DNA of 64,000 nt from Squalus acanthias (Eukaryota). Positions 26,321 to 36,472 of this stretch are shown one piece after another (the stretch's first letter is position 1; each line of letters opens with the position of its first letter). The position numbers and the translations under genes are program-made. Location of the stretch: positions 159,466,001 to 159,530,000 of the forward strand of contig CM059431.1 of NCBI GenBank assembly GCA_030390025.1. The letters run 5' to 3'. Under the pieces are notes generated by a model, which made no database searches, was not told the DNA's origin, and saw only the letters and a program-made list of their open reading frames with translations.

Positions 26321-28493
26321 ATACGTGGGAAAGAATAAGAGGTAGAAGTGGACCAGAGGTCCTTCACACTGAATTTTTGTTATTAGAACGGAAGCTTAAA
26401 CGATGGACTTCAAGTGTCATGTTTTGTCCAGGGAGATAGAGGACAGTAATGTAGGCTCATTGGAACAGAAGTAGGCCATTCAGCCATAGAGTCTGTTCAA
26501 ACATTGGATTACATCAAAGCGAATCAGTATCTTAACTGCACTTAACCGCCGTTGTTCCATAACCCGCAATACCCTTGCACAACATAACTCTGTCAATCTC
26601 AGTTTTTACATTTTCAAATGACCTTGTCTCAGAAGCTTTTTGAAGGAAAGAATTCCAAATTTCCACTACCTTTGTGAGAAGGTCTACTTTCTGACATTAC
26701 CCCTGAAAGGCTTACCTCTAACCTTACCATCTGGTTGTTGATTAATTCAGGATCATTACTTAGAACTAAATGTAAGATGGGTTGTTTTCTGGTTGGTTCA
26801 AGAATGTACTGTTACAGAAAACTATCCCTATAGTGGACTTCCCCACCAGAGGAAATAGTCTTTTCTATCTAACCTACCAAATCTGTAATCATTTTAAACA
26901 CCTCAAGTAAATTATCTCTGAATCGTCTACATTCAAGGAAATGGAAGCCGAGTCTACGCAACCTGTTCTCATAATTGCACCTTTTCAGCCCCGGCATTAT
27001 TCTGGTGAATCTGAATTGAACTTCCTCGAAGACAAACATATCCTTCCTGAAATGAGGCGCTTAGATATGAATGAAGTACTCCAGGAGGGGTCTAACCAGA
27101 GCTCTGAACAGCTGTAACATAAATTCCAACGCATTATATTACAGCTTCTTCAGGATAAAGGCAAACATTCCAATAGGCTTTTCAATTATTTTTCTGACCT
27201 GTTCACCAACTTTCAGTGATTTCTCTACTTAGGCCCCTAAATCTCTCTGCTCATCCACAGTTACATGTTTCTCACCTTTGAAAATACTCGAATCTATCTA
27301 TTTTAGGTCCAAAGTAGATGAACTCACACTTTCCCACATTGAACTGCAACTGCCAAAATTTTGCTCACTAACTTAATCTATCAATGCAACTTTCTGCTCC
27401 GATCTAAACGATTTGCTTGTGCCAATTAACATAGTGTCGTCAGCAAACTTAGATATTCGGCTCTCTGTTTCTTCATGCATGTAAATTATAAATATAGTGA
27501 AAAGCTGCTCCCACAGTACAGATGCCAGACGTAAAACGCAGGTCATATTCTGACAATTTGAGGACATACTCATTACCCCTACTCTCTGCTCCCCTACCTC
27601 CTAACCAATTCCTTATTCAAGCCAAAAGGTTGGCTCCAATTCCATGTAATCTCTTTTTAGTTACAGTTGAAAATTATCGAATTACTTCTGAAAGACCGTA
27701 AAATGACATCCATTATCACTCCCTTATATGCCACTTTATTTAACGCCTCAACATTTTGCACTGGGTTCGTTATAAATGACTTACCCCTTACAAAGCCATG
27801 CAGGCTTTCTCTGATCACCTCATATTTGTCCAAATGCTCAGCCACTCTTTCCGCAACAACAGATACAAGTAATTTCCGCACAGCTGACATTAGATTAATA
27901 AGCCTATAATTTCCCAATTTATCTCTCCTACCCTTCGTAATTAATGCAGAGACTTTGGCACTTTTGCAATCCAAGAGGACAATTCCTGAATCGGGAGAAT
28001 TCTGTAAGCTATACTGACGCATTTCCTCACATGCTACTTTTAATACCCAGGGGTGAAAGCTATCGTGTCTGAAGATTTGTTTATTGTTAATCATATTCGT
28101 TTCTCCATCACTGTGTTTTGAAGTATATTGAATCTAGTTAGTTGCTCTCCTTGATTGATTTTTAGTTTTCCTTGTATCTCTGGTACTTGTGGGATGGGAC
28201 AGAGTATCCTGGGAGTTAATGTGCATATGTCACTGAAGGTGGCAGGACATATTGTGAGAGTGGTTAGCAAAGCATATGTCATCTGGTGCTTCATAGATAG
28301 AGGTATTGAGTATAAAAGTAGAGAAGATATGCTGAACCTTTATAAAGCGCAGGTTAGGCCACAAATGGAGTATTGCGTCCAGTTCTGGTCACCAGACTTT
28401 AGGAAGGATGTGAATTTCCTTGACACGGTGCAGAGGAGATTTACCAGAATGGTTCCGGGGATGGAGGATTTAAGCTACAAGGGCAGGTTGGAG

Positions 28494-31400
28494 ATCCTGG
28501 AGAGGCATAGAGTAACACCTCTTTTGTATGTAGCACCTTTTTAGTTGATTAAAGCTTACTTTAAGTTCACCACGCGTAAGGCTCATTCTTACGACAATTT
28601 AATCAACTTTGAAAAACTTCGCACTCAAACTTTTTGGACGAACTCGGAACTAAGGATCCAGGGAATCACCCATCATGGAAAACATCCTTAAACCATCGCG
28701 TCTTGACTTGGACCCAAACACCCCAGCAGCCGGTAAGGTGTGGAAACACTGGTATCGCACGTTTGACAATTTTCTCGAATATTGCAAGGTTGATGATGAC
28801 TCAAAATTGCGGATACTCATCAACTGTGTCACCCCGAATGTATTTCAGTATGTCGAGGAATGGGGCAGTTACGAGGAGGCAATTCGGACGCTTAAAAGAC
28901 TATATACTAAGACACCGAATGAGGTCTAGGCCAGACATCTACTAGCTACAGCCCAACAAGGGCCGGAGGAATCCATTGATAAATTCCTCCAAGAGCTTCG
29001 CAGACTTAGTATGGACTGTAACTTTCAGGCGGCCTCAGCTGAGCTGTACCGTGAAGAAATGATCCGTGATGCTTTCATCTGCGGGCTTGCCTCCCCATTT
29101 ATACGCAAGCGTCAACTGGAAAGTAAGACACTTGAGCTTCAGAGAGCTTATGACATGGCTTGCTCTCTAGATCTGGCAAAAAGAAATGCAAACCTTTATA
29201 CAGTGCCCAGGCCTCGGTCTGCTGCCTTAACTACAGTCAGGCAATTTAAGAGGCCACAGGTGAACTCTATTAGGGAGGACTTTATCCCTGACGATCAATC
29301 TGATGACTTCACTGATGAAGAGGATGATGACCCCACTGTGGCAGCCTCTTGGCAATCTAAGAAATGCTTCTTTTGTGGTGATGAGTTTCACCCTCGGAAA
29401 TTCTGCCCTGCTCGCAATGCGTTTTGCAGTCATTGCAACAAAAAGGGTCATTTTGCAAAGGTTTGCCTATCAAGAGCCTCTACGAGGGCTTATCAAGCTA
29501 AGTCCTACCGAACTGCCCCGGTAAGGGCCTATCAAGATGTTCCAGCTAAAATCTATCGTGCTTCCTCTCGGGTTTTCTCTCGAAGAAACACACCTAGAGT
29601 TTCAGCCACTCTTTGTGCAACGACACCAATTACAGCTGCTTGTCCTCAGAACCTATTCCATGCAGCTACAAAAGCATCAATTAATGGACATACTTTAGAT
29701 GCCTTAATTGACTCAGGTAGCACTGATAGTTTCATTATGGAACAGATTGTTGCAGAGTTAAAGCTACATGTTTTCCCATCGGACCAGGCAATTGCGATGG
29801 CTCAGTCATCACTTAATACCAGAATTTCTGGCTTTTGTATGGTTGAAATAACACTTAATGGTCACAGGTATCCCTCCACCCGGCTTTCGGTGCTCAAGGA
29901 CTTATGTAGTGATCTTATCTTAGGGCTAGATTTTCAAAAGCAGCATAAGAAGCTCACCATTGAGTTCGGCGGATCCAAACCTGAACTCACTATTTCTAAT
30001 ATACGACCTCGATTACCGTTCTGTGCATTGTCAGCAGCTTCACTGGATGAACCCACACTGTTTACCAGTATCCCTCCTCGATGCAAACCGATTATAACAA
30101 AGTCACGACGTTTCAGTCAGGAAGACCAGTCTTTTATTGCGGCTGAGATTTCTCGGCTTTTAGCAGAGGATATCATCGAGCCTTGTTCGTCGCCATGGCA
30201 CGCCCAGGTCGTTATTGTTAAGAACCCTCTACAACCTCACAAGAAACGGCTGTGCATTGACTATTCACAGACCATCAATCAATATACGGACTTGGACGCA
30301 TACCCATTGCCGCGCATCGATGATATGGTTAATAAACTGGCTGAGTACACGGTGTTCTCAACATATGATCTGAAAAGTGCCTATCATCAGGTACCCTTGA
30401 AGGTCTCAGACAAGCAGTATACGGCCTTTGAAGCCAATGGACGGCTGTATCAATTTCGTCGCCTCCCCTTTGGGGTCACTAATGGAGTGGCTGTCTTCCA
30501 GCGAGCAATGGATGACCTGGTCAAACAGGAAGACTTAAAGGATACGTTTCCTTATCTGGACAATATTACTGTCGCAGGTCGCAATCAGCGGGAACATGAC
30601 GCCAATCTCCAACGATTTTGGGATGCACTCCAGCACCGTAATTTGACATTAAATGCGGCTAAATCCATTGAGTCACAACCAACCATCAACATCCTTGGCT
30701 ATTGTGTGGGCAATGGCATTATTAAACCTGACCCTGAAAGGCTTCGCCCACTCCAAGAACTCCCGCCACCTTAGAATCCGGCCTCCTTGCGCCGGGCCCT
30801 CGGCCTGTTTGCATACTATGCTAAATGGATTCCTAACTTCTCGGACCGAATCCAACCTCTACTGAAGGCCAGCACATTCCCACTAGACACAGCGGCTGTT
30901 GCAGCCTTTACCCTCCTGAAAAAACAGTTGGACAAAGCGGCTCTTCACTCCATCGATGAGAGTCTTCCTTTTGTTGTTGAGTGTGATGCCTCGGAGGTGA
31001 ATCAGGAAGGTCGTCCGGTGGCATTTTTGTCCAGGACTTTTCAAGGGGCTGAGCTACATTATCCTCCAGTCGAGAAAGAAGCTACAGCCATCATAGAGGC
31101 AGTACGGAAGTGGACTCATCTCCTAGCTCGCCAGCACTTTACCTTAATCACGGACCAGCGATCGGTCGCCTTCATGCTCGATAATCGAAAACGGACCAAA
31201 ATTAAAAATAATAAAATCCAGCTTTGGCGGCTGGAATTGGCCTCTTTTGGTTACACCATCCACTATCGACCTGGCAAGGAGAATGTGGCTCCGGATACCC
31301 TCACACGAGCATTCTGCTCCGCCATGGCACCCTCTACGCTCGTAGACATCCATGATGGGTTGTGTCATCCGGGCGTTACTCGCATGCTACACTTCGTGCG

Positions 31401-32493
31401 GTCCCGAAATCTCCCATTCTCTACCGGGGATGTAAAGAAGATGTGCTCGGACTGCAGAGTCTGTGCGGAATTGAAACCTCAGTTTTTCCGCCCCTCGGGT
31501 GGTATACTCAAACATGCGACCCAGCCAATGCAACGGCTTAGCATCGATTTTAAGGGGCCGTTGCCCTCTTCAACTCGCAACACTTATCTATTGACCATGG
31601 TCGATGAGTATTCCCGTTTTCCGTTTGCCTTTCCCTGCCCCAATATGCTGACGACCACGGTTATCAGCTGCCTTGAGCAGGTATTTGCTTTCTGTGGCAT
31701 GGCATCCTATGTTCATTCGGATCGGGGCCCTTCTTTTATGTCAGGAGAACTCAAGGCCTATCTCTCGGAACGGGGTATTGCTGCCAGCAGAACGACGCCT
31801 TATCATCCGGTCGGGAATGGGCAAGTCGAGCGTTTTAACGCTATCATCTGAAATGCGGTACATCTGGCTTTGAGATCTCGGGGCCTACCCAACCAGCAAT
31901 GGGAAGCAGTACTTCCAGACGCATTACACTCCACACGGTCCCTCCTTTCGACCGCCACAAATACGACGCCTCATGAACGGATCTTCCGATTTCAGCGTCG
32001 CTCATCCTATGGGATATCTCTCCCGTCGTGGCTGACTGCACCGGGACCAGTGCTACTCCGAAGATATGTTCGGGCGTCTAAGAATGACCCCCTGGTAGAT
32101 GAGGTTGAGCTCACTGACGTCAACCCTACCTACGCCTATATTCGGTATCCTGACGGTCGGGAATCTACCGTGTCATTGCGGGATCTGGCTCCCTGCCCGC
32201 CGAAACATAGAGGGACACCAGGGGATGATCTTGTACCAGGCACATCTCTGGGCTCGCCAGGTGCCTCTCATCACGATCTGGATCTGACGCTGGCTGGTAC
32301 CTCACTCCAGCGTGCCGACCTGGGGCAGACTGACTATGAGCTCGTCGGGGCTCGCACGCGCAGCCACGATCCACCCCGTACCATACGCTCGGAAACGGAT
32401 CTGCCACAGCCCTGCCCGACACCCGTTCGGGCACCAGTACACAGTCAGGATCATCCTGACCCCTCACAGAGCGGGCTGGATCACTCGGACTCT
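28494..32493 (+). mobile_element. Ty3/Gypsy LTR retrotransposon: partial 5' LTR plus internal region, no 3' LTR
   Basis: Domain order gag-PR-RT-RH-IN; putative LTR end ...ttacgaca at 28596. Confidence 0.93.
28675..32490 (+). pseudogene. gag-pol: Single-frame Gag-Pol with three premature stops (~28927, ~30772, ~31849)
   Basis: ORFs at 28675, 29011, 30787 and 31870 share one frame; CSHCNKKGHFAKVC zinc knuckle, DSGS protease, LPFG and YLDN RT, CDAS RNase H, HDGLCH..CRVC and SIDF/HSDRG/QVERFN integrase. Confidence 0.93.
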
Positions 32494-32887: not shown

Positions 32888-34143
32888 TGTAGGCTTTGCA
32901 AAATCCCCCAGAAACACGAACAGAGCCCTAAAGATAGTGACTTTTGGACCTTTCATACAAACTTCGGATGATGGGACCCAAGTGAAGTGATTTGATGTAA
33001 AAACCTCAGTTTTGGAAAGATCAGGGAAGAAAAACCCTGAGGAAACTGACTTTTGAATCTTACTGTTGGGAGAGACACCTTCCACAGACAAAAGACACGC
33101 TGTGGAGGGGCGTGGTCAGGCAGTGAACAGATGTGGTTATTGGGGCCCAATCAAGCTGTCTGAGAATTGTTTACACTGCAAATCCTACCAAGGTGGAGAG
33201 ACAAAGCAAAAACTCACACACACATCGAAATATGAATAATCCAATAACCCCTTTTCAAATTCCCAGGCCCAAACAGTATACCAGAAGCCTGAAATCAATA
33301 AAATACTAAGTACTTCATCAAAAACCAATCAACCAGGTATCCACAGAACAGATTTAAAAGCCCGCCAAAAGACCTAGGACAATAGGGTTGAGATTTGGCG
33401 CGTAGATAAAGCTGTGTTTAAATCGGAAAACGATCAAGTCTTGTTTAACACTGAGCTGAAGCCATCGGAACTGGCAAGCCCGCCAAAACTAGACAATGGA
33501 CTAGCAAAGGTTCATTTGCAACCTAAAGGAATCCGTTTTAGTAAGGGGTTTTTTGGGCGCGAAAAAGAAACAGTATAATTGAAAGCCTGTCCCATAACGT
33601 CTCTCTCTTTCGGACTCGCTGACTACGCTGACACAGCTCACTCCCTGCTCCAACAAAAACCACCACAAGCCACGAGGAGGAAGGCCAGAAAACAGACCAG
33701 CACGCAAGAAGAAACCAGAGCGTCTGCCTCAGTGACCAACGGATACCTCGCAGCAACAAGAGCCTTACAGAGTCTTTTAAACAAAAGACTCTAAAATCCT
33801 GTCAAGGATTCATCGGTGAGCATTATCCCTGATTTCCTGAAACCAAAAACCTAGCTAGATAGTGGGATCTTTGGAAGGGATAAGGTTTTGTTTGATATAT
33901 TGTCACTTTCCCTCGCTTGTACCATGTGGTCCCCAATCTGTGTTTAAGTAATAAGTGTGTTTCAAGTTTGTTACCTTTTTCTTTTAATACAGTAAAATTC
34001 TTTCATTAGAACCTGTCACCTACTGCAATTTTGTACACAACCCCTAAATACGTCCAAAGTCTAGGAACCAGAGGGGAGTGGTAGCGATTCGAACCACTCA
34101 CTGAGTCAGAAAGCGAAGGCTGACCCCCTTATTGCCCCCTACA
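32888..34143 (+). mobile_element. 5' LTR (1256 bp) of a second LTR retroelement
   Basis: TGTAGG...CCTACA terminal inverted repeat; begins within a CR1 tail; followed 4 nt later by a PBS. Confidence 0.85.
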
Positions 34144-34147
34144 TAAA

Positions 34148-34165
34148 TGGCGACCGCGGCAGGAC
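34148..34165 (+). promoter_or_regulatory. Primer-binding site complementary to the tRNA-Arg(TCG) 3' end
   Basis: tggcgaccgcggcaggac is the reverse complement of ...GTCCTGCCGCGGTCGCCA, the vertebrate tRNA-Arg-TCG 3' end as I recall it. Confidence 0.85.
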
Positions 34166-34218
34166 TTTGGCGAAAGGGTTGTGAAGCAGTAAATGCTGGT
34201 TTTGAGGAGAGAACAAAA

Positions 34219-35971
34219 ATGGAAGAGAGGATGTCATCCTATGTATATAAAAAAGTAAATATCACCAAAAAATGGGTCCTCAGGCTGTTGCATGCTGAAC
34301 GTCCTATGGACGCTGCAGCTGCATGGACTGCGAGCAAGGAATACAATAAGTCTGTGGAGAAAGCCATATGGTTGGTCTTCTCCCAGAAACAAATGCAGCT
34401 TATGGGGAAGCGCATTCAGGCTCTCACAGAAGAGCTAAAGGAAGAAAGCCAACTGTCCCGTGCCAGAGCTATAGCAGGGGACAGTTTGTTGGCAGAGCTC
34501 GGCACAAAATATCAGGAACAGTCACAGATGCTGGAGGAACACCGTGCCAGTAAGGGATACCTCCAGTGTCAGGCCACCGAAGCCAAAAGTAGTGAACTGG
34601 CATTGCGGGAAGAGAACACCCGCCTTGCCAAGCAATTAAGGGAACTCACAGAGAAGTTAAACGATGTTCAGGCAGCCTACAGAGTAGCCAGTACAAGGGA
34701 GTTTGAGGTAGGGGACCACGGCCCCTGTCAGAAGCAGATTGAGAGTCTGAACCTTGCTCTGTCCAAGACAAAAGGCATGCTGTGCCTGATAAGCTCGGGT
34801 GCGATCCAGGTAGACCTGGAAGAGCAGGGGGAGACTGTTAGACCATCACCTGTGGCGCCAAGGAGAAGCTTGGTTAGGCAGCAGGAGCGGCAGACAATCT
34901 GTGAGGCTGACAGGGAGTGCACACCAGCACCTGTGGCGCCGAGTTTTGACTCGGTCTGGCAGCAGGGAGAGGGGGGCAAACCGATGCAGGAGAAGTCGGA
35001 GCCAGGGCCAATGTGCCCAGCACGACAGCAAAAATTCGGCCCGCCCGCCGGTGGTGGAGGTCAGGGACCCCTTGAAAGTCAATTCTTGGCTCCCCACGGT
35101 ACACAACAGCTTAGGGCTATGGTAAGCCACCTGAGTAAACTTACCCAAAAGGAAGACCCCTCAGTCCACTTCATGGAGGTGGAGCAGGAGGCAGGCATCA
35201 ACGATTGTGACGATGCCGAAATGGCAAAAATGCTCCTGTTCTCATTAGATGGCAAACTTGTACCAGTCCCTCTCTACTGAGAGCAAGAGAGGACAGAACG
35301 GGTATGCGGCCGTCAGAGAGGATGTTTTAGAGACCATGGGAATGAATGAGGGAAGTCCTTTCTCCCGCGTGGAGAAAACAGTGCAGTTCGCAGGGGAGAC
35401 CCCACAGGCTTTCGCAGACAGGCTATGGCCGGTGTACAGGGGTGCTTGTAATGGGGCTCTCGACAGGGCTAACCTGAACAGGGACGAGCTGGCCCACTGG
35501 CTCCGTAGACTAGTGGCAAACAGCTTGCCACGTGTCAAAGCCAAGGCTGAGCTTTGGTTTGACCCAAGAGATCCCCGGGTCACCGAGGAGGCAGTGGTCA
35601 GGCAACTGACCCTAGCCTACCAGAACTGTAGGGGAGCTGAAGACACCCCAGCGAAAAGGAAGGTGCATGAGATAAAGCCCAGTCAGGATAAGAAGGAGTG
35701 GCACCAGGAAGGTGGTAAACCTTCTGACACGAAGCGTAGCTGCTTCGGGTGCGGGAAGACTGGGCACTGGAGAAAGGACTGTTGGAATCCCTGGAAGGAT
35801 AGCCTAGCAAATAAGTCCCCAACTCCTGCCCCAAAAGTAGAGGCACCGACCACTTCCCCCACACTGGACACAATAGTAGCGGCCGTCAGAGTCCTGTTTG
35901 ATGGCCCAGGGAAGGTGGCTACAGCCACTGGCGCTCTAATCCCATCTGCCCCACCCAACCCACAGGTATGA
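34219..35971 (+). pseudogene. gag: Gag (coiled coil, capsid-like region, CCHC knuckle), one frameshift near 35260
   Basis: ORFs 34147-35280 and 35249-35971; QFAGETPQAFADRL (major-homology-like) and CFGCGKTGHWRKDC. Confidence 0.85.
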
Positions 35972-36172
35972 CTGGAGCGAGCACAGCCGGTCTACCTGTG
36001 TCCCGACGAGTATGATGCCTGGAAGAGACCGCATGTTAAGATGAAAGGTTTAAAAGGTAGAAGGGACCTATCTGTTAGAAACAGGAGCTTCGAGCACCCT
36101 CATTTATTCAGATAACCCAGCCACTTCACCTCTGTCTAACGGGGTCCCGTACAGCCTAGTGGGATTCACAGG
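35972..36172 (+). pseudogene. pro: Retropepsin-like protease N-terminus, frameshifted and truncated by CR1
   Basis: RPHVKM then GTYLLETGASSTLI...SLVGFTG (the DTGA motif reads ETGA). Confidence 0.75.
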
Positions 36173-36209
36173 AGAGCGGCGGCGGACATGCGGGGAACCG
36201 TGCGGCTGC

Positions 36210-36472
36210 GGCGAGGTTAAAGAGGTGGCAGATTCAGGTAGGCCTCAGAGCGGCGGCGGACCTGCGGGGTACCAGGCGGCGGTGGCGAGTTTCAAGAGGC
36301 GGCTGAGACCGGGTAGGCCTCAGGGCGGCGCCGGACCTGCGGGGAACCAGGCGGCGGCGGCGATGTTGAAGAGGCGGCAGAGACCTGGTAGGCCTCAGAG
36401 CGGTGGTGGACCTGCGGGGAACCAGGCGGCGGCGGCGGCGAGGTTAAATAGGCGGCAGAGACCAGGTAGGCA
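36210..36472 (+). repeat. About 4 tandem ~62-65 bp GC-rich units in the CR1 5' UTR
   Basis: ggtaggcctcagagcggcggcggacctgcgggg(a/t)accaggcggcgg repeated at ~36237, 36312 and 36387, with a partial unit at 36465. Confidence 0.9.

Follow-up and report, generated by a model that had tools for sequence, protein, structure and literature searches.

A clade of animal Ty3/Gypsy retrotransposons, one member of which lies in the window of Squalus acanthias DNA analyzed here (the whole stretch of 64 kb), appears to prime reverse transcription with RNA derived from its own long terminal repeat (LTR) instead of a tRNA, a reading to which we assign a probability of roughly 80%. The case for self-priming is built from sequence, namely a helix between the LTR and the stretch behind it, a fixed helix start one base past the LTR end, compensatory changes in the two strands, and the lack of a TGG-type primer-binding site (PBS). 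To our knowledge, self-priming has been proven experimentally only for yeast Tf1-type elements and is predicted for related chromoviruses and for the TAR group of plant copia elements. Our search of full-text papers listed none on self-priming in an animal non-chromovirus Gypsy clade. Repbase entries may call some animal Gypsy families self-primed, and prior notice is therefore possible.

The window copy and its family

The element in the window is a piece of a Ty3/Gypsy retrotransposon that matches the intact copy L043 at 98.7% identity over positions 28493-32493 only. It retains the 3' part of the 5' LTR (28493..28596, + strand) and a gag-pol frame (28675..32493, + strand) for Gag with CCHC-type motifs, protease, reverse transcriptase (RT), RNase H, and integrase, the 3' end of which is cut off. 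The first 90 nt of the 5' LTR, the end of the open reading frame (ORF), the polypurine tract (PPT), and the 3' LTR are missing, and stop codons interrupt gag-pol at 28927, 30772, and 31849. A Gag search of the 3.7-Gb host genome returned at least 150 scored matches at 99-100% identity. Twenty copies, picked by long open frames, served to describe the family, and 18 of them could be parsed as full-length. Family copies measure about 4.4-4.5 kb and carry 194-bp LTRs (TG...CA), a purine tract, and one ORF of 1315-1318 aa, typically 1316 aa. The single ORF claimed by an earlier, sequence-only reading of this DNA thus holds for the family but not for the window copy, with its three stops and lost 3' end. 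The two LTRs of a parsed full-length copy show 0-3 differences. TG...CA LTRs, a target site duplication (TSD), a PPT, and the order Gag-PR-RT-RH-IN are all present, as expected of Ty3/Gypsy (Metaviridae) elements, and Pfam matches on the family protein cover protease, RT, RNase H, and integrase, while the ESM Atlas gave generic Gag clusters only. The RT catalytic motif of the window copy is YLDN (30555-30566) in place of YxDD; this motif and the lack of a visible chromodomain, both noted in the earlier reading, are properties of the whole family. The window copy is therefore a truncated, stop-bearing member of a young Gypsy family.

The 4-kb piece ends at 28493 and 32493 without termini and without a TSD, inside a CR1-like fragment that appears to run on from one side of it to the other, with short microhomologies; the piece was possibly captured at a DNA break independently of integrase. 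A separate peculiarity of most parsed copies is a duplicated purine tract and LTR start (~4545-4616 of L043), about 72 nt before the true 3' LTR and overlapping the ORF end. The 1318-aa subfamily (L059-L062) and L044, unlike the other copies, have a single purine tract and LTR start.

An 11-nt pairing across the LTR end

Positions 28543-28553 inside the LTR read AGTTGATTAAA and positions 28598-28608 read TTTAATCAACT; they are exact reverse complements, as the sequence-only reading had reported. The 11-mer is found at these two places only in the 64-kb window (shuffles: mean 0.08 matches), and the composition-based chance of an exact 11-mer partner inside the 194-nt LTR is about 1e-4, or 6e-4 with five start offsets. 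The first stretch, the candidate self-primer arm (28543..28553, + strand), ends in ATTAAA (28548-28553); the second (28598..28608, + strand) is the candidate primer-binding position, hereafter the site. Between the LTR end and the site lies one spacer base, an A at 28597 (+ strand), whose counterpart is unpaired in 17/17 families. The LTR end at 28596 was confirmed by three 3'-LTR copies (L010-L012) that diverge directly after ..ACGACA and by 5-bp TSDs outside TG...CA in 18/18 parsed full-length copies. Folding of 28543-28615 gave the helix at -15.4 kcal/mol (z -3.25), and longer windows reached z -0.95 and -1.26 only. Among 36 family 5' ends examined, 34 keep both strands of the helix, one has a changed arm, and one a changed site.

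Register and covariation across families

Homologues with 58-76% RT-RNase H identity are many, and the named ones belong to crustaceans, corals and anemones, Trichuris, a tunicate, and cartilaginous fishes; viral contigs yielded no relatives. Among 120 relatives, the RT motif is YLDN in 88 and YLDD in 19, the YLDD members being interspersed in the same clade. From metagenomes we used the best 80 of 564 relatives, of which 20 have a flanking LTR pair and 56 lack a usable Gag start or LTR; L138 and L111 offer a usable 5' junction without an LTR pair, and L094 and L108 have no usable 5' LTR. The testable set comprised 15 metagenome families and two host-genome families (A and B), 17 in all, L111 having been added after a 16-family set. 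L122 was left out as a duplicate of L121, and L100 was left out of the register and covariation counts. A pattern search of the host genome for AATAAA-type families gave 0 matches. The RT-RNase H of the host families is 70-76% identical to unnamed, crustacean, or coral proteins, versus 59-60% to named cartilaginous-fish proteins. Judged from such comparisons, horizontal transfer of the host families is possible.

The helix starts at +2 after the LTR end, with +1 unpaired, in 16/16 families and also in L111 (14 bp), a register that is partly circular in five of the 17 families (L098, L101, L109, L138, L111), where the LTR end was set by hand from the CA beside the helix. Such a fixed start is the geometry that a primer 3' end would need. 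Arm positions 1-11 are paired in 182/187 cases over 17 families, compared with a row-shuffle mean of 137.2 and maximum of 167 (0/20000 shuffles reach 182); the variable positions 4-9 are paired in 99/102 cases against a shuffle mean of 59.4, and the 14 distinct arms alone in 149/154 against 107.0, all three shuffles ignoring relatedness. Three to four Watson-Crick pair types occur at each of positions 5-8. Pairing also runs past position 11, with positions 12-13 paired in 28/34 cases (16.1 in shuffles), so that helices span 11-17 bp across families, often 12-17. Out of 12 positions, a site matches its own LTR at 11.6 on average, other families' LTRs at 8.6, and displaced stretches at 6.9, and one of 80 displaced controls reached 10/12 or better. 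The covariation check on family members and relatives that had been suggested from the window sequence came out with the pairing kept, covarying, and precisely aligned to the LTR end.

Mismatches in the 5' LTR copy of the arm occur in L153 (10/12), L142, L150, L095, and L100, and in L142 and L153 the 3' LTR arm pairs better with the site than the 5' one. A double change sets L096 apart from the remaining copies of its family (L095, L121, L155), in which the arm is the common one. In L100, one arm mismatch, seen by eye, is present in both LTRs with the site unchanged, a pattern that would follow if new copies took their arm from the parent's 3' repeat.

Host family B keeps the same arm and helix in an LTR whose U3 is unrelated to that of family A (local score 21; shuffles up to 22). 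In its sister subfamily B', C-G replaces T-A at position 8 in 25 of 28 pattern matches. The host genome also holds 12 T:G copies, nine of them in B', and three C:A copies. Among B' T:G copies with a readable 3' LTR, 6/7 retain C there, and in every one of the three C:A copies the 3' LTR reads T; since the 3' LTR keeps the matching base, both kinds are later mutations, and most T:G copies reflect later CpG decay. A replicating wobble intermediate was considered for the T:G copies and ruled out, as 6/7 are changes in the 5' LTR alone. Within B' (L239-L278), the arm CpG shows C-to-T in nine copies and the site CpG the matching G-to-A in none.

Chance, tRNA priming, and poly(A) occlusion as alternatives

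The helix might be a chance pairing or a functionless inverted-repeat relic at the DNA level, to which the A/T-rich arm and the 25/240 cross-family comparisons reaching 11/12 lend some color; these cross matches, however, are mostly between families whose arms are identical or almost so, and covariation, a fixed register, and a helix kept while U3 was replaced together point to selection, which leaves this explanation with a negligible probability. Priming by a tRNA can be weighed more directly. As the earlier reading had observed, no TGG follows the LTR in the window, and a TGG site complementary to the tRNA CCA end is found in 0/17 families. The comparison of the site with host tRNAs, also suggested there, yielded no 3'-end match beyond 1 nt, in a sample of 77 genes with six anticodon calls (Lys, Cys, Gly, Thr, and two unassigned types). 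On these sequence grounds, canonical tRNA priming is excluded. An internal tRNA segment or a tRNA half could still prime at the site, the LTR match being secondary: half-tRNA priming is known in copia lineages, according to the portion of PMC6317226 available, and a sample of six anticodon calls is too narrow for a direct exclusion of halves. Against this stand the best internal tRNA match in the sample, 6 Watson-Crick pairs, the 14 site sequences across families, each following its own LTR in a way in which tRNAs do not vary, and the difference in site between sister subfamilies within one host, and we consider such priming very unlikely.

A different role for the helix is suggested by the arm's terminal hexamer. 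The arm ends in AATAAA or ATTAAA in 8/16 5' LTRs, or in 10/17 families when the L142 3' LTR and L111 are counted, and no other such hexamer occurs in the LTRs of families A and B. The partner strand exists behind the 5' LTR only, so the helix could serve just to occlude the 5' LTR's poly(A) signal, preventing premature polyadenylation, another primer being used. Yet in 7/17 families the helix is present but contains no canonical hexamer, the hexamer lies outside the helix in L097 and L101, a fixed +2 start with +1 unpaired is not required for occlusion, and the element would be left without a primer site. The helix may additionally serve to mask the 5' poly(A) signal, but this cannot be the whole reason for it, and the version in which this is the only function strikes us as improbable.

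A predicted route to the primer

According to the part of PMC7175516 available, the PBS of Tf1 is bound by the initial 11 nt of the RNA, with RNase H cleavage falling between bases 11 and 12. By analogy, self-priming here would begin with the element RNA folding back so that the arm pairs with the site. The RNA would probably be cut at the 3' end of the arm, between 28553 and 28554, with the element's own RNase H as the probable cutter, and the freed 3'-OH would then be extended across 28597 into U5. The arm might at the same time be the 5' end of the RNA, with transcription starting at or a few bases before 28543, for which we see about even odds. The same helix could also mask the poly(A) hexamer of the 5' LTR, with that of the 3' LTR remaining exposed.

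A W-A-G-Y motif at arm positions 12-9 (G in 16/16 families, A in 13/16) resembles the initiator consensus. Were transcription to start at this initiator-like motif, the primer would be 11 nt long, like that of Tf1 (PMC7175516, in the part available). Self-priming could also proceed with another geometry, in which transcription begins far upstream and places the arm inside the RNA, or in which an arm from the 3' repeat pairs with the site and circularizes the genome. In the two host families, TATA-like boxes precede the arm by 74 and 92 nt, too far for an RNA start at the arm; pairing beyond position 11 is unexplained by a strict 11-nt 5'-end primer; and the arm is present in both LTRs. Helices flanking the primer duplex as in Tf1 are likewise unsupported: by an uninterrupted-stem test over 16 families, which can miss bulged helices, a post-PBS duplex scored 6.1 versus 6.0 in shuffles and a U5-end hairpin 5.06 versus 4.99. 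On the other side, the initiator-like motif is kept in the 5' part of the arm and no TATA-like box was found in 13/16 families, and we regard the other geometry, itself a form of self-priming, as rather unlikely.

A 7-bp U5 hairpin is predicted just 5' of the LTR end (28574..28593, + strand) and is present in both host-genome families, with no enrichment across the clade. A seemingly conserved hairpin right after the arm, spotted by eye, was discarded at 4.25 versus 4.05 in shuffles. The conserved AG was also rejected as a splice acceptor: the distance from GTAAG to AG in family A, 33 nt, was judged by eye to be insufficient for an intron, and assembled contigs from sequencing runs contained no joints across it.

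Phylogeny and comparison with known and predicted self-primers

In midpoint-rooted trees that had no Tf1, Tf2, sushi, Mag, or Cigr-1 rows, RT-RNase H sequences of the helix-bearing elements formed one clade on a long branch, set apart from other Gypsy rows with support 1.0 in FastTree (185 rows) and from all 29 outgroup rows at 100/100 in IQ-TREE (47 rows). The clade also includes deep-branching members with 38-48% identity. The outgroup includes the chromodomain-bearing algal P0241 and SH3_Tf2-1 kin, the one chromovirus group sampled; L142, L162, L168, and L293, with short RT stretches, were left out of IQ-TREE, and L111 is in FastTree only. The RT phylogeny called for by the sequence-only reading thus placed the helix-bearing elements together and apart from the sampled chromovirus group, in a tree without Tf1/sushi rows, and on this sequence evidence a nesting of the clade within chromoviruses is unlikely. 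PF00385 and PF24626 had no match in L043 or five relatives at E<=1, and a home-made chromo HMM found, among 315 proteins and L043, a single match, outgroup P0241. In the host genome, a PF00385 profile search gave 16 matches, none adjoining a Pol match, so that this genome supplied no chromovirus for reference, and a PF16297 profile search gave no match, its controls being likewise without one. Ty3 of Saccharomyces cerevisiae is tRNA-primed. It supplied the best solved-structure match of the RT-RNase H (4OL8, 168 bits, E 2.8e-48), against 528-727 bits within the clade.

The nearest functional parallels are Tf1 and Tf2 of Schizosaccharomyces pombe and Tj1 of S. japonicus, Ty3/Gypsy elements that likewise have no tRNA site and in which a stretch of about 11 nt following the 5' LTR can pair with LTR sequence (available portions of PMC7175516, PMC4600332, and PMC10085805). 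The available text of PMC10085805 further describes two flanking duplexes in Tf1 that form a 'pretzel'. In contrast to Tf1/sushi elements, the present clade has neither a chromodomain nor a Tf2-type SH3, has YLDN in most members, and occupies a separate long RT-RNase H branch, in a tree without Tf1/sushi; in contrast to Tf1, it has no supported pretzel duplexes, its arm overlaps a poly(A) hexamer in 10/17 families, and the role of the arm as RNA 5' end is putative. The label 'Tf1-like' given by the earlier reading therefore fits the mechanism only, as tests found no chromodomain and gave no support for pretzel helices. In sum of these features, the mechanism would work like that of Tf1, while membership in Tf1/sushi is not borne out by the features tested.

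Self-priming has also been predicted from LTR-PBS complementarity for Tcn1 chromoviruses and for plant TAR copia elements (Houba, Osr-1), the latter indicating that the trait can arise outside Tf1/sushi (PMC6317226, in the part available). Those are other lineages in other hosts, one chromoviral and one copia, whereas the elements here form a non-chromodomain animal Gypsy clade. We tentatively entertain, as possible, a fuller scenario in which this clade would have evolved self-priming independently of Tf1/sushi with a one-helix design, the poly(A) signal forming the primer 3' end and one fold both blocking 5' polyadenylation and supplying the primer, which might derive from an arm that is internal or lies in the 3' repeat.

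The tunicate protein P0154 (Clavelina) falls inside the clade. Cigr-1 of Ciona intestinalis, which we take to have ~245-bp LTRs and one ~3.6-kb ORF, would resemble the 1200-1230-aa members of the clade. PMC6238403 and PMC8556966 name Cigr-1 and MolGy (molluscs) clades, and the term PBS had 0 matches in their main texts and searched supplements. Literature searches with motifs (YLDN-type and others) for a clade name returned nothing relevant, and 'Selgy' was dismissed as a name because it denotes a Selaginella clade (PMC6317226, in the part available).

Implications and neighboring elements

These results add a widespread animal clade without a chromodomain to the candidate self-primers. They are relevant to the number of times that tRNA-independence has evolved and to the question, raised in the available part of PMC3601003, of whether priming by a hairpin is the ancestral state. 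If self-primed, these elements would evade control of the PBS by tRNA fragments, and they would be missed by PBS filters in annotation. The family is very young and of high copy number in a 3.7-Gb genome, and its RNA ends should be readable from host tissue.

A second, unrelated Gypsy-like element, with a CCHC-type Gag, lies at ~34140-36000 of the window. Behind its putative LTR stands a TGG-type site (tggcgaccg..), which marks it as a presumably tRNA-primed neighbor. At 36163-36461, a G+C-rich unit of 75 nt is repeated four times in tandem.
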